From a virus (lineage: Duplodnaviria > Heunggongvirae > Uroviricota > Caudoviricetes): DNA of 59,558 nucleotides. The translations under genes and the position numbers were made by a program. The notes under the pieces are model-generated. The model did no database searches and had not been told where the DNA came from. It saw only the letters and a program-made list of their open reading frames with translations. The number at the start of each line of letters is the position of its first letter. Position 1 is the stretch's first letter. The stretch is from IMG/VR virus record IMGVR_UViG_3300035498_000944. The stretch is one strand, 5' to 3'. Below are positions 37,872 through 56,753 of this stretch, in pieces.

Positions 37872-38262
37872 TGAATTTACCCCTCTTTCTGTAGAGTAAT
37901 TTGTAATCCAAATTACCTTCGTCGTTATAGAATGGAATGCCAACATAATCTTTTGTAGAGATATAATCAGCATTTACAGAATATGCTATATCTGCATATA
38001 ACTCTTCATTAGGAGTCAAATCTGAATTGTATCCAAACCACTCTAATACTTTGAGATTTGTATCCTCATCTGCAAACAATTTATCGTTTAATTTTGCATT
38101 AGAAGGATAATCAATCCAGTTCCAGTATAAATCATTATCAATATATTCTTTAAGATCATCTGCACTATCATTACTCAGTACAAACATAAACACTATTGCT
38201 AATACGAGAACAATAGCGATTACTGATATAATTTCAAATGCATGTTCTTTTAGAATCTTCAT
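37846..38262 (-). CDS. Membrane-anchored hypothetical protein
   Basis: N-terminal TM; 138 aa. Confidence 0.65.
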   Translation of the reverse strand: MKILKEHAFEIISVIAIVLVLAIVFMFVLSNDSADDLKEYIDNDLYWNWIDYPSNAKLNDKLFADEDTNLKVLEWFGYNSDLTPNEELYADIAYSVNADYISTKDYVGIPFYNDEGNLDYKLLYRKRGKFSGYKETIW

Positions 38263-38642
38263 TAGCTAACCCAACTCCTTTCAATGCTTATAATTTTATT
38301 ATCATTTACAATCATTGTGTAAGAATATACATAAGGTTCATCATCAAATGTAACATAGATAGTGGTTGTATTTTGCTCTTCAACAATATCACCTATAGAG
38401 AACGTTCTATCTGCTAAAGCTTCCCATGTCATAAATTCACCACTTGTATTAACGTATGGAAGATACTTTGTTTCTATATCATTGATGACATTATCAGAAA
38501 AATACTCACTCAATCTTTCTCTATCATACTGAGTATAATCTGATGAAATGTACATACTTAGAGCTGCTTTAGTATCTAAAGTTTCCTTTTTAGCACATCC
38601 TGTAAACATAAATAAAATTAAAATAAACATTATAGGTTTCAT
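38262..38642 (-). CDS. Lipoprotein, paralog family L (copy 4)
   Basis: FTG-C lipobox; LSEYFSDNVINDIETKYLP. Confidence 0.78.
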   Translation of the reverse strand: MKPIMFILILFMFTGCAKKETLDTKAALSMYISSDYTQYDRERLSEYFSDNVINDIETKYLPYVNTSGEFMTWEALADRTFSIGDIVEEQNTTTIYVTFDDEPYVYSYTMIVNDNKIISIERSWVS

Positions 38643-38657
38643 TAATTTACTCCCTTC

Positions 38658-39050
38658 TTATTCACATGTATAATTGCATACCTTTCCATCACCATCGAGT
38701 TCAGCTTCAATTGTATACTTTATCTCTGGATCAAAATCATAACTAAATACTGTTGTGAAGGTAGAATCAGTTGCAACTATACTGTCAACAGTGTATGGAA
38801 GATACTCAAGATCTTCAGAGTAACCCACATAATCACCTTGAAAAGAAGGCATATAATATGATAAGATATAACTTGATGTAGTTAAATCAAAATATGTCTG
38901 CACTTCTTCTCTAGGTATTTTATCATAAGTATAAGTTATTATTATTTTAGAAGCTTCAGAGGCAGTGTTCTTTATGTCATTCTCCTTAGGGGTAGAACAA
39001 CCAGTAAGGAGGCTCAACACCACCAAAAATAAAAATGTAATTCTTAACAT
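38658..39050 (-). CDS. Lipoprotein, paralog family L (copy 3)
   Basis: LTG-C lipobox; VQTYFDLTTSSYILSYYMP. Confidence 0.78.
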   Translation of the reverse strand: MLRITFLFLVVLSLLTGCSTPKENDIKNTASEASKIIITYTYDKIPREEVQTYFDLTTSSYILSYYMPSFQGDYVGYSEDLEYLPYTVDSIVATDSTFTTVFSYDFDPEIKYTIEAELDGDGKVCNYTCE

Positions 39051-39061
39051 ATTAAGCCTCC

Positions 39062-40618
39062 CTAATTTTTCTTCAAAGCTACTGCCATCTTTCCTCTTGC
39101 ATCATAGCCTTCTTGGAATTTAGACCATGTGTAAGTTTTCTGTGCACCCTTATCTGGGTCATTAACAATTATATGAGTATCATCATATCCAACAACAAGC
39201 ATACAGTGTTCACTACTTATCCAAGATACAGATTTACCGTTATAAGTATAAGCTTTACCAGTAGATCTGCTTGGACTCTCAGGACTAATATCACCCCATA
39301 CAAGCACTGGAATGTTCTTGTCTGTATAGTTCTTAACAACATCTTTTAAAGATGTACCAGTTATATCAGTTACTGAATACTCTGACTTCTTGCCTTGAGT
39401 ATCCAGATAATTATTAATAGCCTTAACAACTACTGGTGGGAAACATCCATATTTATCTGTAGGATCTCCCCAGAATTTTTCATAAGGGTTTGATGAATCT
39501 AATCCTGATATGCCAGATTGTGGCAGTATACTTGATGACATTATAGTATCAAGATTAGGAGAGAATCCATAATAGTACAAAGCCATAGCTGCTGATGTCA
39601 TTTCACAACCTGACTTATAATCCTTAGATCCAGACGAATGCTGATTGAGAACCTTTGTAGACTTAAGCCCCCCAGAACTTGAACTTGAATCTGAATCAGA
39701 ACTATCATCTGAAGATGTTGGTATATTTACGGGTGTTATTACATTGCAAATCCATTTTACATCCTTAGATATAAATGTATCAGCTGAGGTGGCTATTACA
39801 GTATTATGTATCCATTTAGAGGTCTTATAAGCTTTTATCCATGATAATACTGTAGATCCTAGATTAGGATCTGATACTAAAAAGTATTTTACCTTTCCAT
39901 CTTGTTTTATATAACCATGAGCTATTTCTATATGTCCAGTAATTTGTGATACACCACTAGAAGCTAATACACTAAATACTACAACTCCACCTTTATCAAA
40001 AACTTCTACTAATTGATCAACTGTCATATTCTTTGTACCTTGCATATTCTTATCTTCTAGTTGACCTGAATAATGATTCTGAATATACTTATGACCATAG
40101 TCACCTGTATATAATCCACCATTACTCTCAAATCTAACTTCTTTACAATAAGCATACATATCTGATATTGTCCAAGCTTTGTTGTCCCATGCAGAGAAAA
40201 GGTTACCTGTAGATGTCATACCACATATACCCCAGCCATTATTAGACTTAGGATATGTTATACCTCTAAATCCAGTAGGCTCTCCTTGTAAGCCTTGATA
40301 ATATCTTGATATCTGAGTAAGAGTCATGGTACATCCTTCGAAACCTTCAATATCAGATATGTCTTTATCTTTAACAAAAGCATAAGGATGATATCCTACC
40401 TCCCACCAATTATCATCTAGCTTACCGTAACTAGAACCAGAGGATCCATTTACAGTACCATCACTATCGGATTCCTCGGCTGTCTTCATGTCTCTAACTT
40501 TCGTACTGCTTAAATATATAACATCTGAATTAATTTTCTTATCATATGCATTTGGCATAAATATCAGAGCGAAGACGGTTGCTACTAATATAATAGTTAT
40601 TGTTATGATCTTATTCAA
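39062..40618 (-). CDS. YLSSTKV-anchored protein with two C39-like (papain-fold) peptidase domains
   Basis: Domain 1 ICGMTS...GHI...VSDPN; domain 2 GCEMTSAAMAL...EHCMLVVGYD...VNDP. Confidence 0.82.
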   Translation of the reverse strand: MNKIITITIILVATVFALIFMPNAYDKKINSDVIYLSSTKVRDMKTAEESDSDGTVNGSSGSSYGKLDDNWWEVGYHPYAFVKDKDISDIEGFEGCTMTLTQISRYYQGLQGEPTGFRGITYPKSNNGWGICGMTSTGNLFSAWDNKAWTISDMYAYCKEVRFESNGGLYTGDYGHKYIQNHYSGQLEDKNMQGTKNMTVDQLVEVFDKGGVVVFSVLASSGVSQITGHIEIAHGYIKQDGKVKYFLVSDPNLGSTVLSWIKAYKTSKWIHNTVIATSADTFISKDVKWICNVITPVNIPTSSDDSSDSDSSSSSGGLKSTKVLNQHSSGSKDYKSGCEMTSAAMALYYYGFSPNLDTIMSSSILPQSGISGLDSSNPYEKFWGDPTDKYGCFPPVVVKAINNYLDTQGKKSEYSVTDITGTSLKDVVKNYTDKNIPVLVWGDISPESPSRSTGKAYTYNGKSVSWISSEHCMLVVGYDDTHIIVNDPDKGAQKTYTWSKFQEGYDARGKMAVALKKN

Positions 40619-40648
40619 ATAGCAATCACTCTCCAGATGTATAAACTT

Positions 40649-41044
40649 TTAATAAGTATATATTTTAGAATAGCTTGCAATTTTATTATTATGCAGGGTA
40701 AAAGCTACTGTACATTGTGTTTCTCCAAACATAACATTAGCCTCACCTTTAGAGCCATCAATTGTAATATCTTGAATATCTATTTCTGGAATAGATTCTT
40801 CTGAAAACTCTGGTAAATACAGACCCTTATCACTATAGCCTATATAAGGCATATAAGATTTTAATTGGTCATTAAGAGCTGAACCATCAAAATATGTTGA
40901 TAAAGTCTCCTTAGTATATTTTGTATAAGGAGATGTCATTATCATATTTATAGGAGTTTCTAAGTCTTTCGAGTCAATAGTTTTGTCACATGCACATAAA
41001 CAGAACATTGATAAAACTACTAACAAATATTTAAGTCGTTTCAT
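40649..41044 (-). CDS. Lipoprotein, paralog family L (copy 2; start re-set to ATG 41044)
   Basis: LCA-C lipobox; LSTYFDGSALNDQLKSYMP; start 1 nt after the M23 gene stop. Confidence 0.78.
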   Translation of the reverse strand: MKRLKYLLVVLSMFCLCACDKTIDSKDLETPINMIMTSPYTKYTKETLSTYFDGSALNDQLKSYMPYIGYSDKGLYLPEFSEESIPEIDIQDITIDGSKGEANVMFGETQCTVAFTLHNNKIASYSKIYTY

Positions 41045-41045
41045 A

Positions 41046-41843
41046 TTATTTCCACCACGTTTCACCATTTACAGAATCCACTTTTGATGTATTAGCATAA
41101 TCAGTACCTTTCTTTATGCAGGTATCATAATTAAACATAGAAAGATCATCCAAAGTATTCACCCAACCTTTGTATATAGCTGCAGGATTTACTAAGTGTG
41201 ATGTAAAAGTATTAAAATCGTAATCAGTATCGAATATTGACATTTGCAAGTCAAGATGTATACCATATTTATTAGGTTGAGTAGCACTGGCAGAACCTCC
41301 TTGTATACCTATCTGTTGACCGGCTTTGACAGTATCTCCAACTTTCACATACTTAGAAGTACTTCCAATTACCATATGATTGTATCTACTGTATATAGTT
41401 ACACCATCTATCTTATGCTGTATTATGCATGATTCTCCATAGTCGGTATTTAGGCAACCATTGGCTACAACAACACCATCCCACACAGCAGCGATACCTG
41501 CAGTAGTACTATTGACAGCAAGGTCTATAGCTCTATGAGTAGGCTGTCCTTGTGCTATATGATAAGCACTATAGTATGATGATGTTACACTTGCTAACTT
41601 TGCATCAGCGTCTACATATGGAGCATGAATATTTTTTAAAGTAGATGTTGAACTATCATTACTATCTGCATTTTCATTTACATCAAGTGAATCATTTCCA
41701 GTTACATCTTTACTTATTGAACTAACTTTAGTGCTAGATAGATATAAAGTATTGTCTGGACTCAAATCCTCTGGGAGGAAGATTACAAATTCAAACACCA
41801 GAATAGCTATAAGTACAATAACAACTATATGTGATGCACGCAT
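41046..41843 (-). CDS. YLSSTKV-anchored M23-family peptidase
   Basis: HRAID, AAVWDGVV, SRYNHM, VKVGDTVKAGQQIG, HLD (variant of HxH). Confidence 0.85.
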   Translation of the reverse strand: MRASHIVVIVLIAILVFEFVIFLPEDLSPDNTLYLSSTKVSSISKDVTGNDSLDVNENADSNDSSTSTLKNIHAPYVDADAKLASVTSSYYSAYHIAQGQPTHRAIDLAVNSTTAGIAAVWDGVVVANGCLNTDYGESCIIQHKIDGVTIYSRYNHMVIGSTSKYVKVGDTVKAGQQIGIQGGSASATQPNKYGIHLDLQMSIFDTDYDFNTFTSHLVNPAAIYKGWVNTLDDLSMFNYDTCIKKGTDYANTSKVDSVNGETWWK

Positions 41844-41872
41844 TTCTATGTACTCCCTCCAAAAGTCTATTA

Positions 41873-42202
41873 CTAGAACTTAACAAATACTTTGTAATCT
41901 TTATTAAAATAAAACTCGGCTTTTGCATGAGCCTGCTTAAATTTCTGTAGATCCTCTAACACAGGACTTATTATCTGATATGTACCAGATTCTTTTAAAT
42001 CATTCAAATCTTCATCATCTACAGATTTATCTGCATATAATTCTTCATTGAATGTACACATATTTAAAACATTTTTATCTACTGCTACAGCAACACCTTT
42101 AGTAGGTCGATCATAACTCATAGGTATAAATTTATCAGAAGATTTACTGCATCCTGATGCAATAGACATTAACAAAATCAAACCAATAATTCTTAATTTC
42201 AT
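41873..42202 (-). CDS. Small lipoprotein (not family L)
   Basis: ASG-C lipobox. Confidence 0.7.
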   Translation of the reverse strand: MKLRIIGLILLMSIASGCSKSSDKFIPMSYDRPTKGVAVAVDKNVLNMCTFNEELYADKSVDDEDLNDLKESGTYQIISPVLEDLQKFKQAHAKAEFYFNKDYKVFVKF

Positions 42203-43575
42203 TATGTACCTCCTATAGTTATATTTCTACTATCTACCCAAACACGACACATATATCTAATTTCATTAGGATGTGCCTGAAGTATTGCTCTATCAACTTT
42301 AGGTATTTCAGTCGTTACATCTAGCCAACCAAGTAAAGTCTTTAACATAGCTTCATCCCATTTAGCATCATTCTTGTAATTGTGATCAAGTTGATCCATA
42401 AATTTATCTTGATACTTTTGTACAAGTTCCATGTACGCTTTCTCTGGCTTCTCATCTTCAACACCTAGAGCAGTTATGTAATCATATGTTAAATTAGCTA
42501 TTTCAATATCATCTGTAAGCATTGTTAGAGAGTGATTTGAATCATTATTGATATTATGCTCATCAACAAATCCTCTATCACTTGAACCGAAGTTAATGTC
42601 TAATTCACCAACTATACAATTAAAGTGATCAGATATTACCCATTTATCCATTTCACCTGCATAATCCCAAGAAGGAGTATTCTCATAAGTATAGTCTTTT
42701 CTTTTAGAATACTCTACAAAAGATATAGGATTCATACGAGCATTGGGAACAGGATGATCGGCAAATAGCAAAATATTATCTGTCAAACATCTCCTGAGAA
42801 TATAATCCATTGTGACCTTTTCTGTTGGTGTTGGATTATAATCTCTTGGATCCTCTGTTTCTTCTGATGTATGATCTTCATTAGCGACTGCTAATAGTCT
42901 CAAGGCTTGATAGTCGTCTTGAATGTTTTTAAAAATCTTACATATTTTTACAGAGGAAGAACTGTTTCTTAATGCTGTAGCTAATTGTTGATTCAATCTG
43001 TTTATTTCAGAAGAATATCTAGCTTCCTTTGAACTTATGTCTGAATCTGCTATAGGAGCAGAACCTCTCCATTCCATATAATCTGGAAAACAGATCATCC
43101 ATCTCTTTTGCAAATCGGAATCTAGTTCTTCAGGATCTATATTATACCAACCGCATTCACGAATATAAACTGGATAGTTTAATTTCATATACTTGTCATT
43201 ATGTGGATTATCCATAACTTTATTATAGGCAGATATAAAAGCAATAGGGCTCCATGTATCTACATTAGTCATTTGCTCTGCATAATGACACATAGTATTT
43301 AAAATGTATTCATTGTACTCTTTATAAGGAATATAAATTTTATCCAAATCAGTTTCATCATCCTCATCTATGCCCCAAATTATCTTTTCAATATTGTTAG
43401 GCATAAAGTACATATCTTTACATTTATATGTGATTTTAGTTTGTTGAGTGTAGGGTGTAACACCTAAGCTAGGGTTGGATTTTAAGTTATTAACATAAGC
43501 ATAGCAAGGTATGCAATTTGAAGACAGCACACCAATTAATAGTAGCATCATTAGGTGCTTTTTCATACAGCACAC
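42202..43575 (-). CDS. Secreted hypothetical protein
   Basis: Signal peptide; 457 aa; no recognised domain. Confidence 0.7.
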   Translation of the reverse strand: MCCMKKHLMMLLLIGVLSSNCIPCYAYVNNLKSNPSLGVTPYTQQTKITYKCKDMYFMPNNIEKIIWGIDEDDETDLDKIYIPYKEYNEYILNTMCHYAEQMTNVDTWSPIAFISAYNKVMDNPHNDKYMKLNYPVYIRECGWYNIDPEELDSDLQKRWMICFPDYMEWRGSAPIADSDISSKEARYSSEINRLNQQLATALRNSSSSVKICKIFKNIQDDYQALRLLAVANEDHTSEETEDPRDYNPTPTEKVTMDYILRRCLTDNILLFADHPVPNARMNPISFVEYSKRKDYTYENTPSWDYAGEMDKWVISDHFNCIVGELDINFGSSDRGFVDEHNINNDSNHSLTMLTDDIEIANLTYDYITALGVEDEKPEKAYMELVQKYQDKFMDQLDHNYKNDAKWDEAMLKTLLGWLDVTTEIPKVDRAILQAHPNEIRYMCRVWVDSRNITIGGT

Positions 43576-43597
43576 CCTCCTTTATGTTTTATATATT

Positions 43598-43999
43598 TTA
43601 CTTGTTAGGAGTATATATTATACCCATAACGTGATCATTAACATCTTCAATATCTGGAACCAAACTACCTCTACAAACAAGCTTGCTATCTTTTTCTTCT
43701 ACGACTAAGCCCTTGAGAAGAAGACAGTAATTCATAAGATCTGTAATCTTTTCTTCCCATTTTTCAATAGGGTAATCTCCATTATCAGCCACCATGTCAT
43801 AGAGAGATGTGACATGTTTTGTCATCATTCCTAGTAAAGCTTGCTTTGGTGTGTTCTTCTGTAAAGAAGCTGCAGTCTTAAACTGAATAAGTCTATCCTG
43901 TGAACCTATTACATAATCACTTTCACCTTTTGCAGTGATGAGATTAGAACAGGTATTCAGCTGCTCTTCTACCACTTTGTTAAATCTGTCAAATGTCAT
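43598..43999 (-). CDS. All-alpha NTP-pyrophosphohydrolase-like / nucleotide-modification-associated protein (start re-set to 43999)
   Basis: AKG..Y....DRL..FK.AA...TP..AL.GM..KH..S..D...W.EKI.D..NY..LL pattern seen in phage proteins; AAGGAGG RBS before ATG 43999. Confidence 0.6.
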   Translation of the reverse strand: MTFDRFNKVVEEQLNTCSNLITAKGESDYVIGSQDRLIQFKTAASLQKNTPKQALLGMMTKHVTSLYDMVADNGDYPIEKWEEKITDLMNYCLLLKGLVVEEKDSKLVCRGSLVPDIEDVNDHVMGIIYTPNK

Positions 44000-44031
44000 T
44001 TTGTTAACCTCCTTAAGTCTGTTGATTTTTA

Positions 44032-44531
44032 TTATAACCAACCATCCTCATCTGTATCCCAATCTGGAATGTCATAAGGATAATGTGGGTCATTTACATC
44101 AATTATTTTATCAGGTGTCCTAGACACATAATACTGATCATTACCACAAACTGCATGAGTCCTACACATTACTTCAAATAGATCGTTGTATTTTAAACCA
44201 ACTTCTTCGAGCAATGGATATAAGTCTGCACGTCCCTCTGGGATAGTTCTTTGTGTCACAAACATAGGAACATAATGTCTGATATATTCATCTTTATGTA
44301 GTGTTTCGTCTACACCAGCTATACTGATATAGTGTCCTTTGATTCAAGGTATTTACAATTGTCCCATATGAATCGTATGACCCAATCAGAATCACCAGAT
44401 AGACTACTATATTCCTCAGTTATTGTTGCAACAGGAATTGACTTGTACATAATATATGCAGTTCTAATTCTATCAATATGTTCAATGCGTCTATTTACAT
44501 CATAATCTCTAGGAAGTTTATATTTAGTCAT
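44032..44531 (-). pseudogene. HipA-partner (antitoxin-like) gene split by a 1-nt deletion
   Basis: ORFs 44319..44531 and 44032..44265 join into ...LESKGHYISIAG...MFVTQRTIPEGR if one A is added to the AAA at plus 44338-44340. RTIP..R...L...GL...DLFE..C.T...D.YY resembles partners of HipA-like kinases. Confidence 0.65.
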
Positions 44532-45436
44532 TAATTAACCTCCTAACTTCTTTATAAGAATCTTCTATTGATAATCTTTCAATAATATGAAGGTATCTCA
44601 TACAAACTATTTCAATATAAAATCGTTTATAAATTTCAGGTATAAAATCAGATATGTCATTTACAACAAGAACTATGTTTTTATATATAGTTTCTATACC
44701 TAAATTATTTCTAAAATAATCTAGTCTACTATTTAATAATGAACTTATATTTCTATCACCAATAATTTCATAATAGTTCGTTTTACGTGTACCTTTATTA
44801 ATATCGTCAACTCTAAACATAGAGGCTGGAAATCTTTCAGATCTATCAGATAAAAATTTAAATTCATCAACCTCAAATTGATTTATACTTCTGCATACAT
44901 CTGGAAATAATGAATATCTGTTATCATAAATAGGTGCTATAAGATATGTAGAACCGATCGTTAGGTATCCCCAGTTTCCATGATGACGGTCTCTATTTCC
45001 AAGTATAGCGTCACAGATATACATGTCCCAAAAAATGTTTTAGCATCTTAACTTTCATGTCTTTGGATAACTTAAGATGTTTATTAATTAGATATATAAC
45101 ATCATCGTATGTATATGTTTTATTAGAGATATCTGTATCTTCACTTGACTGCCTTGTATCCTTAAAAGATCTTAACGATATATTAGGAGATGTAAAGTCT
45201 CTCAATATAGTTACAAGTTCTTTCTTATAAAATCCAAGCCATGTTTCATGACATGGTATTTTTAAGGATCTTATAAATCTTGAAGCGATATGTTCACTGT
45301 ATAAAGCCGATATAGAAGATTCTTTGTGTTTTACAATATAGTTATACTTATCAACAGTTATACCAAATTTTAAAGAGTTGCCATCATATAATTTACGATT
45401 ACGCATTTCATCAGTTACGATAAATCCATTATTCAT
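44524..45436 (-). pseudogene. HipA/CtkA-like Ser/Thr kinase split by a 1-nt insertion
   Basis: YDGNSLK..YIVK..SEHIAS (N-lobe) and DAILGNRDRHHGNWG, APIYDN (C-lobe); removing one T from the T6 run (plus A6 at 45030-45035) gives KHFWDMYICD in one frame. Confidence 0.82.
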
Positions 45437-45465
45437 ATTAGACCTCTCCTTAAAGTTTTATTTGA

Positions 45466-45990
45466 TTAGATACTATCTGTTGCCTTAGTTATAGAGTCTA
45501 CACTAAGTATTAGACCAAGGTCTGTTAAGAGAGATATTTTACCCTTATTATTTATAACATGAGTTATGGTCTGACCCTTTAAGCTAACAGAATTTATATC
45601 ATAAATTGTTATGGTTGCACTGTGTAATTCAACAACAGGCTTACCTTTGATTTGTTTATTTTTAGTATACATATTACTTTGAATTTTAGCATTATTTATA
45701 ACTGAAAGTTTACCTTGTGCTTCATGATAACATATGCTGTCGTTAAGAACTTTAAAGCCATCAAAGTCATCTCTAAAAACAAATGGACGGACATCCTTCT
45801 TAGGCTCACAACATAAGAGCTTTACACCATTTATGAAACATACAACAGGCATGAATGAATCATAGTAGATGATATCGACGGTATCTCCTTCTTCTATATT
45901 ACTTGTATTGGAAAAGCTATATAAAACTTCTCCATTATCAAATATTAGACAATTTCCACTTTTATGTAATATCTTCACATTTTTATTCAT
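45466..45990 (-). CDS. Hypothetical protein
   Basis: 174-aa ORF with GGAGG RBS. Confidence 0.7.
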   Translation of the reverse strand: MNKNVKILHKSGNCLIFDNGEVLYSFSNTSNIEEGDTVDIIYYDSFMPVVCFINGVKLLCCEPKKDVRPFVFRDDFDGFKVLNDSICYHEAQGKLSVINNAKIQSNMYTKNKQIKGKPVVELHSATITIYDINSVSLKGQTITHVINNKGKISLLTDLGLILSVDSITKATDSI

Positions 45991-46008
45991 ATGGTAGTTT
46001 CCTCCTTA

Positions 46009-47175
46009 TTACCATTCCCCATTATACCTAGCTTCTGTAATCATATAGGATATTAGTGACATAACTGGATAGTTATCTGATCCTGCAGCATTTGCGATTT
46101 TAGAAACTAGTCTCATTGTCTCTGCATCTCTTACAAATCTTGAAGGCTTTTTAGCATCTATATATTCTTTTATTTCTGGTACATATGTAGCAATAATAGC
46201 AGCACGTCTGGCATAATTTTCCTGACCAAGAATACCTGTACCTCTATTATGTCCCCACATTAATAATGTAACCTGAGCATATCTATCACTTAGATTTGTT
46301 AGGGCACATTTACCATTTACTTTCCTTAATGTTGTGTCATAGACAGCAAGACACAAATTAGCGGAATCTGCTATAGACCATCTATCAGCTTTTGTACCTA
46401 ATTTCCACAGTATAGAAGTTCCACCTGCTGGATTAGCACCAAGATCAATCCAACAATCTGTTCTATGTGTGCCATCTGTTCCAATTAATCCAAACTCTTC
46501 AGGTATGACAGGCGTTACACCTTGACCGTAAAAAGACTCTTGCTGAAATGGACCTATAGCACCACCAGATCTTCTTGTTACTGCAGAAGTTCCAAATGTA
46601 CTATTTACATATTTCCAATTATACTTAAGCATGAAATCTTCAGTATAATCCTCTGTTCTCACAGGCCACGAAAATACAAGACCTGGATCATTATAAGCAT
46701 AGCCATATTCAACTGCACCCAAGGCTATAAACCATTTAGGATCTTTTACAGGAATATAACTGGTTTTAGACATATATCGGTCTACAATATTATACACATC
46801 CGAATTTAATTTATTACAAACTTCAGGATTAGCTGAACTGTATTTAATATTACGTGATGAAGCGACATATGTCTCTGATCCTATACTACTAGAATTTTCA
46901 ACTAACACTTCGTAAGGTGTTAAGTCTAAGTCATCAACAAGTGATGCTTTTGAGTAAGGATCATTGGAAGGTGCATTCTTGATATAATCTGTAACATCTT
47001 TTGTTATAGGATCAACCTTAGTTTTATCTGTATCTTCGTTCAATATATGTCCATATCTTGCATATTCAAGTGAAGATAATGGATCTACGATTTCAGCATC
47101 TTCAGCCATTGTAAGTAAACTATTACCTAAGATAGCCACAATTGTTAGCATAGCTATAACAGTAGTATACTTCAT
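46009..47175 (-). CDS. Secreted SLT-like lytic transglycosylase
   Basis: Signal peptide; FIALGAVEYG (catalytic Glu), GAIGPFQ, LMWGHNRGTG (YNAG-like) in the expected order. Confidence 0.62.
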   Translation of the reverse strand: MKYTTVIAMLTIVAILGNSLLTMAEDAEIVDPLSSLEYARYGHILNEDTDKTKVDPITKDVTDYIKNAPSNDPYSKASLVDDLDLTPYEVLVENSSSIGSETYVASSRNIKYSSANPEVCNKLNSDVYNIVDRYMSKTSYIPVKDPKWFIALGAVEYGYAYNDPGLVFSWPVRTEDYTEDFMLKYNWKYVNSTFGTSAVTRRSGGAIGPFQQESFYGQGVTPVIPEEFGLIGTDGTHRTDCWIDLGANPAGGTSILWKLGTKADRWSIADSANLCLAVYDTTLRKVNGKCALTNLSDRYAQVTLLMWGHNRGTGILGQENYARRAAIIATYVPEIKEYIDAKKPSRFVRDAETMRLVSKIANAAGSDNYPVMSLISYMITEARYNGEW

Positions 47176-47220
47176 ATATCAATCTCCTCCTAAAATATTT
47201 TATGTACCTAAAATAGGTTC

Positions 47221-48036
47221 TTACTTTAATATATTTGGTCCTTTCTGAAAAGATTCTATTTTCTTGTTATAACGAGGATTTGTTGGATCACTAACAGCCA
47301 TATTACCCTGTAGCTGCTGTTTGGTTGCATGTGTACAATCTATATAAAACTCAAGTGCACAAGTTTGAGATCCACTAGTCTGCCCCCAATAATTACGGTT
47401 TTTTGTATGCTCAGCAGCCTTAGCATCGACCATTATAACGCCAAACTCTGTACCATCTTCACAATTTACTTTAAACAAAGTACCTATACCAGAAAGCAAA
47501 GCTTTATTTGCTGCTGCATCACTATTTATAGTACTTCGTTGACTATCAGGCGTTACATCTTGAGCAGATAGTGCTACTGTATAATATCTATAACCATTAT
47601 ACTCAAAGTAGCAATAACCACCCTCACATATTACTTCTTCTTGCTTGGCTAATTTTGATTGATATGTACCAGAACCATTTCTCCATCTATAATAAAAATT
47701 ACCTTTAACGGTGGCTGTACCACCAACATAATAGGTAAAAGTGGAAAGAATACTAGAGTACTGTTCGGGAATTGTTGATTTTTCTCCCCATTCTATAGAT
47801 GGATCTATACCCTCTGCAGTTGATTTACCCCCTGATGAGGGATTGATCTCACCATCATTATTGTCATCTGAGCTAACTATAGTTTCATTGACATCCTTAA
47901 CTTTTGTAGAACTCAAATATATGTTACTACTTAAGATATCTTTCTCATCTTTGTAGGTTGCTGGTAGGAACATGATTACCATAATCATTCCTATGACACC
48001 AGCAACTACAACTGCTATACTTACAGGTTTATCCAT
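47221..48036 (-). CDS. YLSSTKV-anchored protein with a DPBB/RlpA-3D-like C-terminal domain
   Basis: RYYTVAL...GIGTLFKV..EDG....VIMVD topology; the family call is tentative. Confidence 0.5.
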   Translation of the reverse strand: MDKPVSIAVVVAGVIGMIMVIMFLPATYKDEKDILSSNIYLSSTKVKDVNETIVSSDDNNDGEINPSSGGKSTAEGIDPSIEWGEKSTIPEQYSSILSTFTYYVGGTATVKGNFYYRWRNGSGTYQSKLAKQEEVICEGGYCYFEYNGYRYYTVALSAQDVTPDSQRSTINSDAAANKALLSGIGTLFKVNCEDGTEFGVIMVDAKAAEHTKNRNYWGQTSGSQTCALEFYIDCTHATKQQLQGNMAVSDPTNPRYNKKIESFQKGPNILK

Positions 48037-48113
48037 TTACAAAAGGACCTCCTTTAGAGGTAGATTCTTTCGAAAGAAGGCAACATAGCTATAACAGTGA
48101 TGTACTTCATATA

Positions 48114-48548
48114 TCAATCTCCTCCTACATAATACTTACCTCCCACCTCACTGTTTGGGAAGGTTCTTTTAAAATAATTTATTTTACCTGAACTATCAAT
48201 TGTAAATTCAATATTAACAGGATTGTCGATTAGAGTAGCTGTAGCTGTGTATGTATGTTTATCTATTTGTGTTATTTCATTTATAACTACTGGATTTGGA
48301 TTTTTCTCATAATCAGAATAGACATATAAAGTGTCTTCATAAGCATCACATCTTGGCAAATATTCAGTCAGAATTTCAGTTAATGCATCACCTGAGAATT
48401 CCTCTCTTATTGTATTTGGAGATACTTCTGGATTTGGGTATATAATCATTAGATTAACTAAATCAGTGTAATCTTTCTGATTATCTTTACATCCTGTAAA
48501 AAATGGTAATACTGCGAATAAAATAATTAATAACTTCTTCATAATCAT
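48114..48548 (-). CDS. Lipoprotein, paralog family L (copy 1)
   Basis: FTG-C lipobox; IREEFSGDALTEILTEYLP; ATGA overlap with the lysozyme gene. Confidence 0.78.
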   Translation of the reverse strand: MIMKKLLIILFAVLPFFTGCKDNQKDYTDLVNLMIIYPNPEVSPNTIREEFSGDALTEILTEYLPRCDAYEDTLYVYSDYEKNPNPVVINEITQIDKHTYTATATLIDNPVNIEFTIDSSGKINYFKRTFPNSEVGGKYYVGGD

Positions 48549-49276
48549 TTACCTGCATATTCTTTCTGTAGATCTTGAGCATAACCATAACGTGTATTTG
48601 TATTATCTACTTTAGGTTTTTCATACTCTGTACATATAAAATGTGTAATCTCATATAGAGTATGATCTGCTTCTAGATACGACTTGAATTTAGGTGCACT
48701 CATAAGCTCCCACATAGTTTCAAGCTGAGGTTCTGGGTCACCTATAGATTTACCCATTTTCTTTGCATTATCAACCAATTGTTTTGCAATAGACCAATAT
48801 GTAAAACCTATTAAGCCAAAGCCAGTACTTGATCCTGGCTTTGAATACCACCAAGTATTACCACCATTATCTACTGTAGATATAAAGTCTAGAGTCTTTT
48901 GACTAGGAGTACTACCATAGTCACCTTCTAATCGTTTAAATGTTAAATTAGATTCAGCCTTAAAATTGCCCATCAATCCGAATATTGCATTATCTGATAG
49001 ACCTTTGCCTTTTAGAAAGTAATATACCTTATCAGCATCAGTATCTCCTTTCAAAGTAGTACTATCTGATGTGTCATCAGAAGATTCTACAGCACTACCT
49101 GACTCGGTGGAATCCACAACAGTAGACGTAACATCCACTACTTTAGTAGAGCTCAAATATAGACTTTTATTTAATAAATCCGTTTCATCCTCAAATAGTG
49201 CTGGTATAAAGTTAACTACTAAAATAACACATGATATAAATGTAATTGCTACAACTATCCTTAGGGGATTACGCAT
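48545..49276 (-). CDS. YLSSTKV-anchored phage-tail-lysozyme-family muramidase
   Basis: KGLSDNAIFGLMGNFKAESNL, GFGLIGFT, QLETMWEL, EYEKP, RYGYAQ. Confidence 0.85.
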   Translation of the reverse strand: MRNPLRIVVAITFISCVILVVNFIPALFEDETDLLNKSLYLSSTKVVDVTSTVVDSTESGSAVESSDDTSDSTTLKGDTDADKVYYFLKGKGLSDNAIFGLMGNFKAESNLTFKRLEGDYGSTPSQKTLDFISTVDNGGNTWWYSKPGSSTGFGLIGFTYWSIAKQLVDNAKKMGKSIGDPEPQLETMWELMSAPKFKSYLEADHTLYEITHFICTEYEKPKVDNTNTRYGYAQDLQKEYAGK

Positions 49277-49294: not shown

Positions 49295-50176
49295 TTAGAG
49301 ATAATCCTTCTTCAAAGCTACTTGCTTGGTAGAACCTGAGGATGCAGCTGTCTTACTTGTGGTCTTTGCATTAGTAAACATTGCCTTGAAGAAATCCTTC
49401 ATAGTGACTTTCTGTCCTTTGCATGCTGCACCAATAAGACTCTTAAATGTTATAAATGCTATACCGCCAGATACAGGTATAGTCAAAAGAAGACCTGCAC
49501 CTGAGAAGTCTAACAAGTGAACGAAGCTACCTGCAATGTTACTAATAAGAGCTGTTATCATTGATCTACCCTTGACCATCTCAGCCATTGTAAGATCTAA
49601 TCCAGTAAGTTCCTTGTACTTCTTCTTAAAGGACATTTGGAATATGAGCATAGCAACACCCATATCATCCAACATACCGACACCGGGTATCTCATCCACT
49701 ACAAGATCTATAGGGGATAGATAATAAATAAGTGCAAGGATTAATGGAACTCTCATAGCTCTAAGAAGTTCTAATATATCAACTTGTGGAATATCACGAT
49801 CATCTCTATCATGCATCATATTTACGAAAGTACCTGCACCTTTGTTAGCAGCATCATGTGCACTACTCTTTACCTTGTCCATAGTTGAAGGCTCCTGACT
49901 AGATGCAACCATTTGCTTCTCAGGTACCTTATGCTGCTGACAAGTTGATTTAGCTGGAGTACTCTCTGTTTGTACTGGCTTTGGTGTAGATTTATCAGAT
50001 GTCTCAACATCTGAATTTAAAGCATAAGCATTAGAAGAATCTATACCACCAGAGTTGCTAGAAGTAACATTTTGTGTTGTAACAGTCTGAACTGTATGGA
50101 CAGTATTACAAGAACTATTGCTTGTGTTGTTTGTGTTACTACTATTTGTTGTTTCATTTTGAGTAGTATCAGGCAT
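49295..50176 (-). CDS. YkvA/DUF1232 membrane protein with a low-complexity N-terminus
   Basis: ALIYYLSPIDLVVDEIPGVGMLDD. Confidence 0.8.
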   Translation of the reverse strand: MPDTTQNETTNSSNTNNTSNSSCNTVHTVQTVTTQNVTSSNSGGIDSSNAYALNSDVETSDKSTPKPVQTESTPAKSTCQQHKVPEKQMVASSQEPSTMDKVKSSAHDAANKGAGTFVNMMHDRDDRDIPQVDILELLRAMRVPLILALIYYLSPIDLVVDEIPGVGMLDDMGVAMLIFQMSFKKKYKELTGLDLTMAEMVKGRSMITALISNIAGSFVHLLDFSGAGLLLTIPVSGGIAFITFKSLIGAACKGQKVTMKDFFKAMFTNAKTTSKTAASSGSTKQVALKKDYL

Positions 50177-50260: not shown

Positions 50261-52744
50261 TTAAATTTTATTCTTTCTCTGTTGACGTTGATTTTGTTTA
50301 TCTATCCAGTTTCTTTGATAGGAACCAGCTAGTTGTTTACCATATTTAAACACACCTAAGAATTGCATATAAACTACTGTACCTATTATGAAGGTTAGTA
50401 AGTAAGGAATAAGCTGTAATAGTATAAGTGTGAGATAACCAACTGCAAAAGTTATAGCTGAAGTTATATATAGCTTTGGTTTAGGTATACCTGCAAGTTT
50501 AAAGAACTTCAAAGCTGGAGTTTGAGCAACAGCATCGTTAGAGATTTTATCGTCAAGCAAATCTGTAAACGGACCATTACTAAACACAATATTAAAGGTT
50601 GCTTTAACTAACACAGGGTATCCCCATAATGCAAGGACTAAGCCTACAAAGAAACCAAGACCTTGTTTAATAAATGTTATTATATAAGCACCCATTGTTG
50701 CTAAAAGGAAAGTTAAGAATAACCTTGGTAAAAACTTAAGCAGTATCTTTAGAGCATTATCAGCTTGAGTAGGATCAATGTATTTTTCCTGACTCTCTGT
50801 AGCTGGTTGTTTTTGTTGTACTGGCTGAGTTTGCTTAGGAGTACTTAACTGATTTGTCTGAGTTGACTGTTCTTTAGGTTTCTGAGCTGGTTGTGTAGTC
50901 TGAGGTTTTGTATTCTGTGAAGGCGTATTTGTAGATGTTGGATTTTTATCAGCACCTTTAACCATGTTCACAGATTTATCACCATACTTGTCAATATGCT
51001 CCTGTGTAATAGTAGTACCACTAGGTACATGAGCTTGAGCAGCAGTGACTGCTGTTATACTTGATTTATATTGATCAATCATAGACTTCATCTCAGCATT
51101 TTGAATCTGAAGATCTTTAACAACTTTAGACATTTCCGTAAGTTGTTTTTTAAGTTCATCAACTTCATTCTTAGCGTAAGGGTTAGAGGAATCTATACAA
51201 GTCTTTGTAGTTGCAGTAGCTGTTCCTGTCTTAGAAGCATGGCTGCTGGTTGACTTGGAAGCTTCTTTAATACTTGTATAATAATCACGTATTTTACTAA
51301 GCATAGATGGGGTGTGAAAACCATACATCTGCGATATTAACAATATCGTAAAAGACCATCTTATAGCAGTTTCATCAAGTTTACAACCGTAATCTTGTAC
51401 AGCCTTCATATCAGATTCAGCACACCTTAGTAACTCTTTAGAGTCTTTGATGTTCTTATACTCGGCTGTTGCAGAAGCTACTTTGTAATAGTTTAGGAAT
51501 ATGTTGTCTACAGCATCAGATAACTGACCATCTTTATACTTTACAGATAAGGCTATTAGCTTCTTTACACACTCATCTGTATCTGAAGCATAATGTTCTC
51601 TTAGATATGTATGAACAGCTTTTACTTCTTCTTTGGCAGACATACCGGATGAAGATGTAGGAGGTGTAATTGTTGTAAATTGAGCTGATGGTTTAGATGT
51701 ATTTGTAGAAGATGCCTGAGTATTTGTAGAAGATGGTTTAGTATTTGCAGAAGATGACTTAGAGGTATTTGTAGAAGATACTTGTGTATTTGAACTCTTA
51801 CCTATATTGTCCTCTGTAGCTGTTTTAACAATACACTTCTTGACTATTTTAGCATCACCATGTATGTTGTAAATAGTTATAATACCAGGTTCTATATTTA
51901 CAACTTTATTCCCTTCACCTTCAAATACAGCGTAATTAAAATCCTTTCCACTTTTATAATAATTTTTAACGAATTTAAGATCTTTAGCATCATAAAGTGG
52001 AGCTATAAACTCTGCATCTTTTATTACGTTAGTATCAGTCTTTATCCATAAATGAACTGCACCATCAGAACCGGATGGGCTAACATTGATGTATGAAGAA
52101 GCAACGCAAGCTTCGTAAGCTTTCCATCCATTTGGAGGATTCTTCCTATCCTTAAACTTCATTTGGTCTAATCTTAAAGATGACTTAGAGGATGAAGATG
52201 TTTGAGATGATGAACCTTGTGGTTTAGTAGTTGATTGTGAACTTCTAGCTTGAGAAGCTGAAGTTTGAGGCTTAGTATCTTGAGGCTTGTGAACTGTAAG
52301 TTCTGTAGGTTTAGAACTTTGTGCATTTGAAGATGACTCGGTCTTATTGCTTGGACCATCTTCTACAGTTACAATACATTTACGTTCAACTTTTATATCG
52401 CCTAAAGCATTTGCCCACCCAATCTTACCAGGGGTTATAGAGGTTACTGTATTACCAGTACCCTTTATCTCAACTATTGCTGAAGGACCCCGACCTGCTA
52501 AGTATCCTTTAATGTCTTTTACTTTGCCATTATAAAGTGGAAATACATACTCAGAGTTTGATGGTGGAAAGCTTGTAGTATTTACCCAAATTGGTATAGT
52601 TAAACTATCAGGATCACTTCTCATATATACGCATGGTGAAGCAGCAGCTAATCCTATATCTAATGCCATATATCCTGGTGGTGGCGTTTTTCTTTGTTTC
52701 CATTGCATTTGTTCCAATGATAAAGCCATATATGATTCCCCCAT
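50261..52744 (-). CDS. Large membrane protein with a duplicated N-terminal domain, S/T/Q linkers, coiled coil and C-terminal TMs
   Basis: LSLEQMQWKQRKTPPPGY and LRLDQMKFKDRKNPPNGW begin two similar ~125-aa units. Confidence 0.75.
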   Translation of the reverse strand: MGESYMALSLEQMQWKQRKTPPPGYMALDIGLAAASPCVYMRSDPDSLTIPIWVNTTSFPPSNSEYVFPLYNGKVKDIKGYLAGRGPSAIVEIKGTGNTVTSITPGKIGWANALGDIKVERKCIVTVEDGPSNKTESSSNAQSSKPTELTVHKPQDTKPQTSASQARSSQSTTKPQGSSSQTSSSSKSSLRLDQMKFKDRKNPPNGWKAYEACVASSYINVSPSGSDGAVHLWIKTDTNVIKDAEFIAPLYDAKDLKFVKNYYKSGKDFNYAVFEGEGNKVVNIEPGIITIYNIHGDAKIVKKCIVKTATEDNIGKSSNTQVSSTNTSKSSSANTKPSSTNTQASSTNTSKPSAQFTTITPPTSSSGMSAKEEVKAVHTYLREHYASDTDECVKKLIALSVKYKDGQLSDAVDNIFLNYYKVASATAEYKNIKDSKELLRCAESDMKAVQDYGCKLDETAIRWSFTILLISQMYGFHTPSMLSKIRDYYTSIKEASKSTSSHASKTGTATATTKTCIDSSNPYAKNEVDELKKQLTEMSKVVKDLQIQNAEMKSMIDQYKSSITAVTAAQAHVPSGTTITQEHIDKYGDKSVNMVKGADKNPTSTNTPSQNTKPQTTQPAQKPKEQSTQTNQLSTPKQTQPVQQKQPATESQEKYIDPTQADNALKILLKFLPRLFLTFLLATMGAYIITFIKQGLGFFVGLVLALWGYPVLVKATFNIVFSNGPFTDLLDDKISNDAVAQTPALKFFKLAGIPKPKLYITSAITFAVGYLTLILLQLIPYLLTFIIGTVVYMQFLGVFKYGKQLAGSYQRNWIDKQNQRQQRKNKI
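51699..51792. repeat. Coding tandem repeat GTATTTG(T/C)AGAAGAT, period 21-24 nt
   Basis: Copies at 51699, 51720, 51741, 51765 and a partial one at 51786; encode SSTNT/SSANT repeats. Confidence 0.8.
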
Positions 52745-54725: not shown

Positions 54726-56753
54726 TTATACACCTTCAGATTTTGTTGCATCAACAACTCTGAAGACACTACTGTTAACAACATCCTTAGGTACAAATGC
54801 TTTAATAGCAGCTGAAGTTGTATTTCTATTTAAGCGATTTACAACAAGAAAAGTTCTATCATAATCACTATTGACATTTATATCATCCATAATAGGTTCA
54901 AACTCTTCCATGGAGTATTCATTAACAAGGTAATCTTTGTTAGCTTTTGTTAATCTACCAAGAACCCATATGTTTATATTTTCTAGAATAATTTCAGCAC
55001 TCTTGTCACCTTTAAGACCAGAGATAGAGTTACCTAACATTATGTTAATCTGATTCTGTGCTCTACGTAAAGACATAGCTTCTGCATACATTTCACGAAG
55101 AACAGCATTAGCAAGCTGGGATTCTTCCATTACATAAATTGTATGTAGACCTTGTTTCTTGTTGTTAGCAACATAAGCATCTGTTACTAATTTGGAGAAG
55201 AAATACTTAAGACTTGTAGTAACCTCATCAGCTACACGAGTATCTGAAAGCATACCAAAATCAAATGTAACAACACGAGAATTGAGGACAGAAGAAATAT
55301 CAAATTCTCTTCTAAACAAATCTGATCCAGTACCTGTAGGTGACATGTAAGTTTTAAAGTTAAGTATAACATCTTCTATAACATCAGAATATATGTTTCT
55401 GATAGATGGCGATACAAATGTCATAAAATACTCAAATACTTTGAATGGGGTAAGCTGACTTGAACGTTCCCATGTATTTGGGTTCTCTGCCACAACACCA
55501 ACCTGTAAGTAAAGTGTTTGTAAAAACTCTTCCATTAGAGATGCAACTTTTACTCTATTATGCTCTGTGGGATTACATATGAGCATAAGAACAGTTTTGG
55601 TTATACGCATATTCTCATTATAGTATTCCATTACTGGTTTACCATTAATAGCATTTTTATCTAATTTAAAAGTATTAATATAGAATGTTGCACCAGGCTT
55701 CATAGATATTACGGAACCATTACAAGACTCTGTAAATGATGTGAATTCATTACCCTTAACATCAGTGATTGAAATTCTGTAATCCTGAGTAAATGCATCA
55801 AGAAGCCATGTAAGAACTAAGAATGTCTTACCTTCACCAGATGGTCCTAGTACATAAAAATTCTTAGCACGAGCAGTACCTTTCAAATCAATAAGATAAG
55901 GGTTCTCACTCATTCTATCAATACCTAACAGCAAGCCTATCTCATCATTTAGACCCTGTGTTGTAGGCAATAACTCTGCAATAGAGTTGCCTGTTCCAAC
56001 AACATACGGAATGTCTTTAGATGCTGAGTTTGCTCTATTTATTATAGGGGACATAAAGTCAAAATAATGAGTCAAATTTGACTTTATGATTTTAGCTTCA
56101 ATGTTGTATTCACCTAAATATCCCATAGCGGCTTTTAAAGCTTTCTGAAGGATAGAGTTCTGTTTTGCTCGAATAGTTACAAATACACGAGCAATATATG
56201 TTGTCTTTCCAGACTTCATGGTTTCATAGGAGAATACCATCCAAGCATTTCGTTCCTTGACATGATCAGCTATCTTATCTGAATCCAAAGAATCTTTTAA
56301 TGCTTGCATACGATTCTTTAAGGCTAAGTCACCAAAGTCTAATTCGTACTTCGAAGCCTTCATTGTAACATCCACAATAACAGATGGCTGTATAGTTTTT
56401 ATATGATGTAATAGCTCAGAGCAAACACCAAGAACCGTATCCAAAGAAAACTCCTCAATAAGAATAACAGAACTTATGTAGTCCTTTGTTACATACACAT
56501 TATCACCTATAAAGATTTCGTCGCCAATATCAGGAGGAATTGTTCCCATATCAGATCTAAAGTGTGCTAACAATGTATTAATCCACATAGATGCTGTGGG
56601 CATGAAATTAACTTTTCGATTTTTCTTCCTGACCTTAGCAATATTGCCTTTAGCAGGTACAGCTGGCTGTTTTTGCTGAGCTTTCTTTAAATTAGGTTTT
56701 TGACTCTTCTTAGAAGAAAGGCTCTTCTTTCTTTTCTTTGTAGGTTTAGCCAT
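54726..56753 (-). CDS. VirB4/TraE-like conjugation ATPase
   Basis: YVLGPSGEGKT, ITDVKGNEF, YINTF, VVTFDFG, YVMEESQ, ILENINIWVLG. Confidence 0.82.
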   Translation of the reverse strand: MAKPTKKRKKSLSSKKSQKPNLKKAQQKQPAVPAKGNIAKVRKKNRKVNFMPTASMWINTLLAHFRSDMGTIPPDIGDEIFIGDNVYVTKDYISSVILIEEFSLDTVLGVCSELLHHIKTIQPSVIVDVTMKASKYELDFGDLALKNRMQALKDSLDSDKIADHVKERNAWMVFSYETMKSGKTTYIARVFVTIRAKQNSILQKALKAAMGYLGEYNIEAKIIKSNLTHYFDFMSPIINRANSASKDIPYVVGTGNSIAELLPTTQGLNDEIGLLLGIDRMSENPYLIDLKGTARAKNFYVLGPSGEGKTFLVLTWLLDAFTQDYRISITDVKGNEFTSFTESCNGSVISMKPGATFYINTFKLDKNAINGKPVMEYYNENMRITKTVLMLICNPTEHNRVKVASLMEEFLQTLYLQVGVVAENPNTWERSSQLTPFKVFEYFMTFVSPSIRNIYSDVIEDVILNFKTYMSPTGTGSDLFRREFDISSVLNSRVVTFDFGMLSDTRVADEVTTSLKYFFSKLVTDAYVANNKKQGLHTIYVMEESQLANAVLREMYAEAMSLRRAQNQINIMLGNSISGLKGDKSAEIILENINIWVLGRLTKANKDYLVNEYSMEEFEPIMDDINVNSDYDRTFLVVNRLNRNTTSAAIKAFVPKDVVNSSVFRVVDATKSEGV

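Follow-up and report, generated by a model that had tools for sequence, protein, structure and literature searches.

An N-terminal membrane module with an invariant YLSSTKV heptad on four predicted wall-active proteins of an uncultivated gut mobile element

The YLSSTKV array and its N-terminal module

The IMG/VR virus record IMGVR_UViG_3300035498_000944 was analyzed here as a single 59.5-kb stretch of DNA (the window), in which all long open reading frames (ORFs) lie on the minus strand and the GC content is 30-37%. Positions 39062-49276 hold an array of genes, four of which encode proteins that begin with a transmembrane helix ending in F-x-P followed by the heptad YLSSTKV, and judging from the sequences this one N-terminal module is borne by unrelated catalytic parts. 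From the upstream end, the four genes encode a 243-amino-acid (aa) protein with a Phage_lysozyme2 domain (48545..49276, minus strand), a 271-aa protein with a C-terminal domain for which there is only a 3D/DPBB-like lead (47221..48036, minus strand), a 265-aa protein with an M23 domain (41046..41843, minus strand), and a 518-aa protein with two Peptidase_C39_2 stretches that starts at TTG (39062..40618, minus strand). All four are predicted to be type II membrane proteins.

A six-frame regular-expression scan of the window found YLSSTKV exactly four times, always on the minus strand: in the 243-aa gene (49139..49159; TATTTGAGCTCTACTAAAGTA), the 271-aa gene (47899..47919; TATTTGAGTTCTACAAAAGTT), the 265-aa gene (41724..41744; TATCTATCTAGCACTAAAGTT), and the 518-aa gene (40496..40516; TATTTAAGCAGTACGAAAGTT). 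These are the four positions given in a first-pass annotation of this DNA, and the scan returned no looser match elsewhere in the window. In the N-terminal alignment of the four proteins, the invariant residues are M1, one Ile, F-x-P, and the seven residues of the motif. The motif codons vary by copy, and both Ser positions alternate between TCN and AGY codons, which indicates that the motif was conserved by selection at the protein level, as the first-pass annotation had supposed.

In the module, a helix that terminates in F-x-P is followed by 6-14 residues of acidic spacer and then by the heptad; past the module comes an acidic flexible tether of ~30-50 residues. The N-termini are short and basic, the helices are strongly hydrophobic and rich in I, V, L, and F (mean Kyte-Doolittle hydropathy over 19 residues, 2.65-3.16), and the 40 residues past the motif contain 8-10 D/E versus 2-3 K/R, together with 15-17 S/T/G/N. 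Hydropathy and composition thus bear out the order of helix, motif, and acidic Ser-rich linker that had been read from the sequence at first pass, with a linker that is rich in both Ser and Thr. A signal-peptidase site after the helix was considered and rejected, because small residues at -1 and -3 are inconsistent across the copies (none in the M23 module and only Ala at -1 in the others). Membership of the signal-anchor-release endolysin class was likewise rejected, on the hydropathy and I/V/L/F-rich composition of the helices. A sortase or pilin motif around the invariant Lys was also rejected, since the real ORFs yielded neither a sortase motif nor an LPXTG substrate.

Three of the four module genes are preceded by a GGAG or GGAGG ribosome-binding site at normal spacing, while GGAG lies ~13 nt upstream of the TTG start of the 518-aa gene. 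This start is also supported by the conserved in-frame hydrophobic helix, which is common to a counterpart starting at TTG in a related locus (L005, see below). The module is covered by no Pfam or NCBIfam model and a literature search found the string YLSSTKV in no paper, in line with the first-pass remark that no motif like this was known; nor did the search find any paper on this element family.

Catalytic parts and their exchange

The 243-aa protein carries a subtype A module (F-I-P), an acidic linker, and a Phage_lysozyme2 domain (PF18013, E-value 6e-20). From residue 81 on, in the catalytic part, it shares 31-36% identity with Faecalibacterium and Acutalibacter phage endolysins; its N-terminal module has no match. 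The 265-aa protein, with a subtype B module (V-F-E-F in the helix, F-L-P) and a linker, was assigned to M23 (PF01551, E 3e-12). Residues 196-198 of the M23 domain are H-L-D in place of the zinc-binding HxH, while HxxxD is intact, and the same is seen in all three orthologs compared (the window, P0006, and P0008). This domain may be active with an Asp ligand or may be regulatory, like the degenerate LytM domain of PrgK.

The 518-aa protein has a subtype C module (F-M-P, YLSSTKV-RDMKT) followed by PF13529 in two stretches (E 4e-30), and it also matched PDB 3erv, a putative C39-like peptidase. C39_2 is a papain-like peptidase family with no established substrate. The C-terminal domain of the 271-aa protein, which follows a subtype A module and linker, had no match in Pfam (E up to 10), NCBIfam, PHROG, or a PDB profile search. 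Only ESM Atlas gave leads, namely a 3D-domain cluster (score 0.88) and structural neighbors among the accessory domains of phage and Bacillota CHAP, NlpC/P60, Hydrolase_2, and lysozyme proteins; AlphaFold modeling from the single sequence gave no usable structure (predicted local distance difference test, pLDDT, 34).

The first-pass annotation had spoken of four wall-hydrolase chemistries, naming two C39-like domains, M23, a DPBB-like domain, and a phage-tail lysozyme. Pfam confirms all of these domains except the DPBB-like one, for which Atlas leads are all there is. The phrase itself overstated the case: M23 and Phage_lysozyme2 are the only established peptidoglycan-hydrolase families in the window array, the substrate of C39_2 is not established, and the fourth domain belongs to no recognized family. 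Clear amidase and NlpC/P60 domains sit in a relative, outside the window. This relative (L005), 20.8 kb taken from a 202-kb contig, is syntenic with the window and has three module genes, which encode a Phage_lysozyme2 protein (YISSTKV), an M23 protein (YLSSTKV), and a 406-aa protein with Amidase_3 and NlpC/P60 domains (PF01520 and PF00877; F-M-P, YLESTKI-RDMKT).

The modules fall into three subtypes. Subtype A (F-L/I-P-A, an acidic spacer, and IYLSSTKV-x-D/V-V) carries a Phage_lysozyme2 or a DPBB-like domain, subtype B (V-F-E-F in the helix) carries M23, and subtype C (F-M-P, with RDMKT after the motif) carries two C39_2 stretches in the window and Amidase_3 plus NlpC/P60 in L005. Within subtype A, identity is 39% between the two lysozyme modules and 43-51% between lysozyme and DPBB-like modules. 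The slot after a conserved DUF1232 gene holds the Phage_lysozyme2 gene in L005, the DPBB-like gene in another related locus (L004), and both in the window. In subtype C, the similarity between the window and L005 stops right after RDMKT, within ~5 residues past the motif. Because subtypes A and C each carry differing enzymes, the part consisting of linker and enzyme appears to have been replaced at least twice on a retained module. Of the earlier idea of interchangeable hydrolases on a common N-terminus, then, the module on unrelated catalytic parts and the exchange on subtypes A and C stand, while the status of all of the parts as peptidoglycan hydrolases does not.

The heptad might also be a processing or modification site, at which a protease or transferase of the host or the element would act on S-S-T-K and so release or activate the enzymes. 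The heptad does lie between the anchor and the flexible linker, its Ser, Thr, and Lys are invariant, and a papain-like C39_2 protein belongs to the set. However, the C39_2 protein is absent from L005, where the motif is kept; no sortase, LPXTG substrate, or signal or prepilin peptidase was recognized in the window; and there is no direct evidence of cleavage. We consider such processing very improbable.

Conservation and distribution of the module

The identical element is present on a few Logan and JGI contigs. Orthologs with an intact motif were found for the 271-aa protein (62%; P0003 on L004) and for the M23 protein (86%, P0006; 55%, P0008 on L005). Over the window and its relatives the consensus after F-x-P is Y-[LI]-[SE]-S-T-K-[VI], with 53 of the 56 motif residues matching across eight sequences. 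Outside the fixed residues, the paralogous modules are only 26-51% identical, and orthologs share 39-60% identity in the module and 43-67% in the remainder of the protein. On these comparisons, apart from F-x-P and the heptad, the module and the remainder of the protein evolve at about equal rates. The array is therefore not a single recent duplication lacking domain variety, the outcome that would have spoken against the first-pass proposal: the paralogous modules have diverged, relatives at 43-67% identity keep the motif, and a further architecture, Amidase_3 plus NlpC/P60, has come to light. Additional diverged copies of the module were looked for and rejected, as a local hmmsearch of the window and the related loci gave eight hits at E <=1e-17 and a next best hit at 0.016.

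A profile of 53 positions, built from eight modules, gave eight hits at E <=0.001 among 1.84 billion representative proteins, namely six module clusters and two leucine-rich-repeat proteins; profile searching of 5.8 billion clusters through a word index agreed with this. When residues 1-60 of the 243-aa protein were used alone in a word-index search, only the protein itself came back, short matches being insignificant at that database size. Scans of IMG/VR with the alignments of the module and of a 388-aa secreted protein encoded in the array gave pattern matches and no confirmed relative, scans of JGI metagenome and GTDB genome contigs with the M23 and 388-aa alignments gave no confirmed relatives, and megablast of the region against phage records gave no match. 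The module is real and of sufficient age to have diverged, and as far as these searches reach it does not occur outside one small element lineage; it is not a widespread signal, and the generality implied at first pass has to be given up.

The cross-hits to leucine-rich-repeat proteins (P0005, P0009, P0010, P0013, and P0014) cover the heptad region only, in 4-9 separate stretches or over ~12 residues. Together with its flanks (I/L-Y-L-S-S-T-K-V-x-D), the heptad looks like a single repeat unit from bacterial leucine-rich-repeat proteins. Membership of this protein class was rejected, because the module proteins have a single copy and lack tandem L-x-x-L-x-L-x-x-T/N-x-V repeats, and the resemblance suggests a strand-forming segment only.

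Another account of the module would be an inherited anchor without any partner, in which the heptad is kept for membrane insertion, for topology, or as a rigid stalk at the membrane surface. Common descent explains the presence of a module that is found in one lineage only, and no partner was found. What descent leaves unexplained is that the heptad and F-x-P stay fixed while the helix, spacer, and linker diverge and the enzymes are exchanged, and we give this account a slim chance.

Lipoproteins and a secreted protein within the array

Small lipoprotein genes lie downstream of three of the four module genes in the window, partly with overlapping stop and start codons. A 144-aa lipoprotein gene (48114..48548, minus strand) overlaps the stop of the lysozyme gene by 4 nt, a 139-aa lipoprotein gene (40649..41068, minus strand) is linked to the M23 gene, and the C39 gene has two, encoding lipoproteins of 130 aa (38658..39050, minus strand) and 126 aa (38262..38642, minus strand; weak Tim44-like match, E 0.0012). 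The four constitute one paralogous family with 20-40% mutual identity. An ortholog of the 139-aa lipoprotein (42.5% identity, E 4e-29) likewise follows the M23 gene in L005, while no lipoprotein gene follows the DPBB-like gene of the window or the Phage_lysozyme2 gene of L005.

The Atlas neighbors of the lipoproteins are SnoaL proteins, and an AlphaFold model (pLDDT 71) matched NTF2 proteins in Foldseek; on this modeling, the adjacent lipoproteins have an NTF2-like fold. In structural comparison they match VirB8 proteins best, on a par with other NTF2 proteins; the weak fold matches include, at rank 24, the NTF2-like protein Tai3, which gives immunity to a wall amidase effector. No VirB8- or TcpC-type sequence match of the lipoproteins was found in Pfam or NCBIfam. 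The NTF2 fold alone cannot separate VirB8 from SnoaL-type proteins or from Tai3-type immunity proteins. A complex prediction for the M23 ectodomain with its downstream lipoprotein scored 0.00, which is evidence neither way.

A 388-aa secreted protein with an ordinary signal peptide and without the module is encoded between the array members (46009..47175, minus strand). It has an SLT- or muramidase-like lead (Atlas feature score of 0.93 to SLT clusters) and is 73% identical to its L005 ortholog. Directly after the lipoproteins there is a 138-aa single-pass membrane protein, both in the window (37846-38262) and in L005 (11210-11638); by eye, it is among the best-conserved proteins of the block between the two, which makes it a candidate for a common component of the machine.

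Enzymes followed by small lipoprotein genes recall an effector-immunity array, that is, a miniature polymorphic-toxin system in which the module would serve in trafficking, the exchangeable parts would be wall toxins, and the lipoproteins would be the cognate immunity proteins. The conserved N-termini with variable C-termini, the turnover between lineages at the same slot, the directly adjoining and partly overlapping lipoprotein genes, the co-inheritance of the M23-linked lipoproteins with M23, and the NTF2-like precedent of the Tae3-Tai3 pair all agree with it. On the other hand, the uncleaved, strongly hydrophobic anchors would hold the enzymes on the producer, Pfam and NCBIfam scans revealed no known trafficking domain (LXG, PAAR, Rhs, CdiA, and the like), unrelated catalytic folds would have to be inhibited by members of a single paralogous lipoprotein family, and the pairing is not one-to-one. 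We regard such an array as rather improbable. For the same reason, the suggestion at first pass that the enzymes are contact-dependent weapons has become less likely, as anchors of this hydrophobicity without a consistent signal-peptidase site would keep them on the membrane of the producing cell.

Genomic surroundings

On the same strand, the hydrolase array has a VirB4-like ATPase upstream and a Tad-like block downstream. The ATPase, a 675-aa protein encoded 5.4 kb upstream of the array (54726..56753, minus strand), matched the CD1110-family VirB4-like model (8e-12), CedB (3e-8), VirB4_CagE (2e-6), and TraC (6e-6), with all four of these VirB4-family matches far under the curated cut-offs, as well as a TraG P-loop model (4e-5) and the VirB4 structure PDB 4ag5 (E 0.068). 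CedB is an archaeal DNA-import protein; the CD1110 family is the best match. Judging from these profiles, the 675-aa protein is a very distant member of the VirB4 superfamily. The Tad-like block, at 13.7-26.6 kb, contains a TadA/CpaF-like ATPase, a CpaB-like SAF protein, a ParA-like protein, and pilin-like genes. The window also encodes RNA polymerase beta and beta-prime subunits and a DnaB-like helicase, and a PHROGs scan of 20 window proteins recognized no capsid, portal, terminase, or tail family.

The gene immediately upstream of the first module gene encodes a 293-aa DUF1232 membrane protein (49295..50176, minus strand), and its position next to the module array is conserved in L005 and L004. 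An 827-aa membrane protein is encoded further upstream (50261-52744); its long N-terminal part contains two repeated domains as well as Ser/Thr/Gln-rich linkers. Its L005 ortholog (1077-2462; 461 aa, or 439 aa as called) lacks the N-terminal part, and only the coiled coil and the C-terminal multi-helix membrane part are common to the two proteins.

An alternative is that the array is the lysis module of a virus-like element, in which membrane-held endolysins with several bond specificities would stay inactive until a holin-like trigger, either the DUF1232 or the 827-aa protein, acts, and in which the motif would serve in holding or release. The Phage_lysozyme2 catalytic domain is closest to the Faecalibacterium and Acutalibacter phage endolysins, it and M23 match PHROG endolysin families, and the two membrane proteins do lie directly upstream of the array. 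The anchors, however, are strongly hydrophobic, unlike the weakly hydrophobic Gly/Ala-rich helices of signal-anchor-release endolysins, and the tethers are long and flexible. Moreover, conserved lipoproteins and secreted proteins are encoded in between the four or five enzymes, near a VirB4-like ATPase, and no virion family was found in the PHROGs scan. We consider a lysis module unlikely.

Several other features of the region were recorded. Within the array, a HipA_C-type kinase gene is split into ORFs of 141 and 166 aa (44524-45436), and the gene after it into ORFs of 70 and 77 aa (44032-44531), while both are intact in L005 (5224-6631; 305 aa with PF07804, and 167 aa). Because the split calls are the same in an independent assembly of this element (L001), the frameshifts are probably real and not an assembly error. 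A 147-aa ORF (43598-44041), between the split 167-aa-type gene and a gene for a 457-aa secreted protein, has no counterpart at that place in L005 and looks like a small insertion within the hydrolase array. Elsewhere in the window, a secreted 355-aa protein (11219-12286) has two S-layer-homology (SLH) stretches (E 1.4e-19), which hints at SLH-binding polymers on the host wall. One gut metatranscriptome contained a few near-identical contigs of 150-200 nt scattered across the region, too little to claim transcription or habitat.

A proposed set of tethered wall enzymes with a common docking handle

We favor the reading that the array represents a conjugation wall hydrolase of the PrgK/TraG/CwlT type, split into separate tethered enzymes with the motif as their common docking handle, and hold it tentatively, at somewhat less than an even chance. 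The four genes would encode type II (N-in, C-out) membrane proteins, each fixed in the cytoplasmic membrane by the uncleaved shared module, with a wall-active enzyme hanging on each acidic flexible tether of ~30-50 residues. Together with the SLT-like secreted protein and the NTF2/VirB8-like lipoproteins, they would form the wall-opening part of an envelope-spanning apparatus. The heptad, near the membrane surface, would be a short linear handle binding one common, conserved partner, and such a partner would let several bond specificities act at one spot. The role of the heptad in docking, the link of the array to the VirB4-like or Tad-like machine, and the N-in, C-out topology are what we infer here.

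The motif is invariant while the lipoproteins are only 20-40% identical, so one conserved common partner would be likelier than the diverged lipoproteins to bind it; the lipoproteins would more probably serve individual enzymes as scaffolds or regulators. The docking proposal fits the context of a VirB4-like ATPase, a Tad-like block, lipoproteins with a VirB8-like fold, and a PrgK-like repertoire of domains. The stronger version, in which the heptad, set at a short and constant distance outside the membrane helix that ends in F-x-P, would be a docking signal of a new extracytoplasmic kind, able to connect any wall enzyme with a single receptor of a VirB4/Tad-type envelope machine, is possible but seems to us doubtful.

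Several points weigh against the split-hydrolase reading. The Tad-like matches, too, are all far under the curated cut-offs, and no relaxase, coupling protein, or VirB6 was recognized within the window. The NTF2 fold is generic, with the VirB8 matches of the lipoproteins within 1 Z unit of unrelated NTF2 proteins. Among the enzymes, the M23 domain with its H-L-D may be non-catalytic, C39_2 and the fourth domain (that of the 271-aa protein) are not proven wall enzymes, and the lysozyme domain is related most closely to phage endolysins. With six protein clusters of one lineage, the known occurrences of the module give small comparative power, and no binding partner of the heptad was found, so that we can only infer a docking role.

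How conjugative or pilus machines pass through the thick Gram-positive wall is poorly understood; in the systems described so far a single multi-domain hydrolase is used, and how that enzyme is targeted and controlled is just beginning to emerge. The array presents the same enzyme repertoire as exchangeable units with a common anchor and an invariant tag. If the tag is a docking peptide, it would provide a handle for finding the receptor and for mapping an otherwise unreadable machine of giant, uncultivated gut elements, and would explain how such elements adapt to different host walls. If it is indeed a new docking signal, the element could swap wall-cutting specificities like cassettes across hosts with different wall chemistries. 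The wider value is limited by the presence of the module in one small lineage only.

Comparison with known systems

PrgK of pCF10 consists of a transmembrane helix followed by LytM, a muramidase domain resembling phage tail lysozymes (MUR), and CHAP, and the VirB8-like protein PrgL binds PrgK and is thought to bring it to the channel (PMC11323569). TraG and TraM of pIP501 behave like PrgK and PrgL, in that TraG binds TraM (PMC11323569). Like PrgK, TraG, CwlT of ICEBs1, and TcpG of pCW3, the module proteins have a transmembrane helix before predicted extracytoplasmic wall-enzyme domains. The domains themselves are also of the kinds found in the PrgK class, namely LytM/M23, a phage-tail-lysozyme-like muramidase, and a papain-like peptidase (CHAP or NlpC/P60 in that class). 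As with the NTF2-fold proteins PrgL and TraM, lipoproteins of predicted NTF2 fold adjoin the enzymes, and a VirB4-like ATPase is encoded upstream. Unlike in the PrgK class, the domains do not share one polypeptide but are divided among four proteins (three in L005), and each protein repeats one N-terminal module, with a heptad to which nothing in the known proteins corresponds. Those with the NTF2 fold are four paralogous small lipoproteins, the VirB4-like match is far under the family cut-offs, and the element, with a genome of >120 kb, encodes an RNA polymerase of its own.

The combination of Phage_lysozyme2 and M23 chemistries is shared with phi29 gp13, with phage tail and virion-associated lysins, and with gut Clostridia endolysins, and there is a weak direct match to phi29 gp13 (PDB 3csr, E 0.0097). 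Those proteins have no N-terminal transmembrane module, and the homology here begins only at residue 81. Polymorphic toxins such as the Tae-Tai pairs of the type VI secretion system resemble the array in their conserved N-termini, their exchangeable wall-degrading C-termini, and their small downstream genes, including the NTF2-like Tai3. They differ from the array, in which no known trafficking domains occur, the anchors are predicted to be uncleaved membrane helices, and the pairing with lipoproteins is not one-to-one.

A further parallel is offered by SpoIID-SpoIIP-SpoIIM of sporulating Firmicutes, in which engulfment hydrolases of different specificities, each tethered by a single membrane pass, are gathered at one site by a membrane scaffold. 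No sequence relation between the two is known, the sporulation proteins are not known to have an N-terminal motif in common, and SpoIID-SpoIIP-SpoIIM is a developmental machine of the host and not a machine of a mobile element. Membrane-anchored wall hydrolases of Gram-positive secretion and conjugation machines are known; what is new here is a lineage-specific common handle combined with a cassette-like exchange of enzymes.

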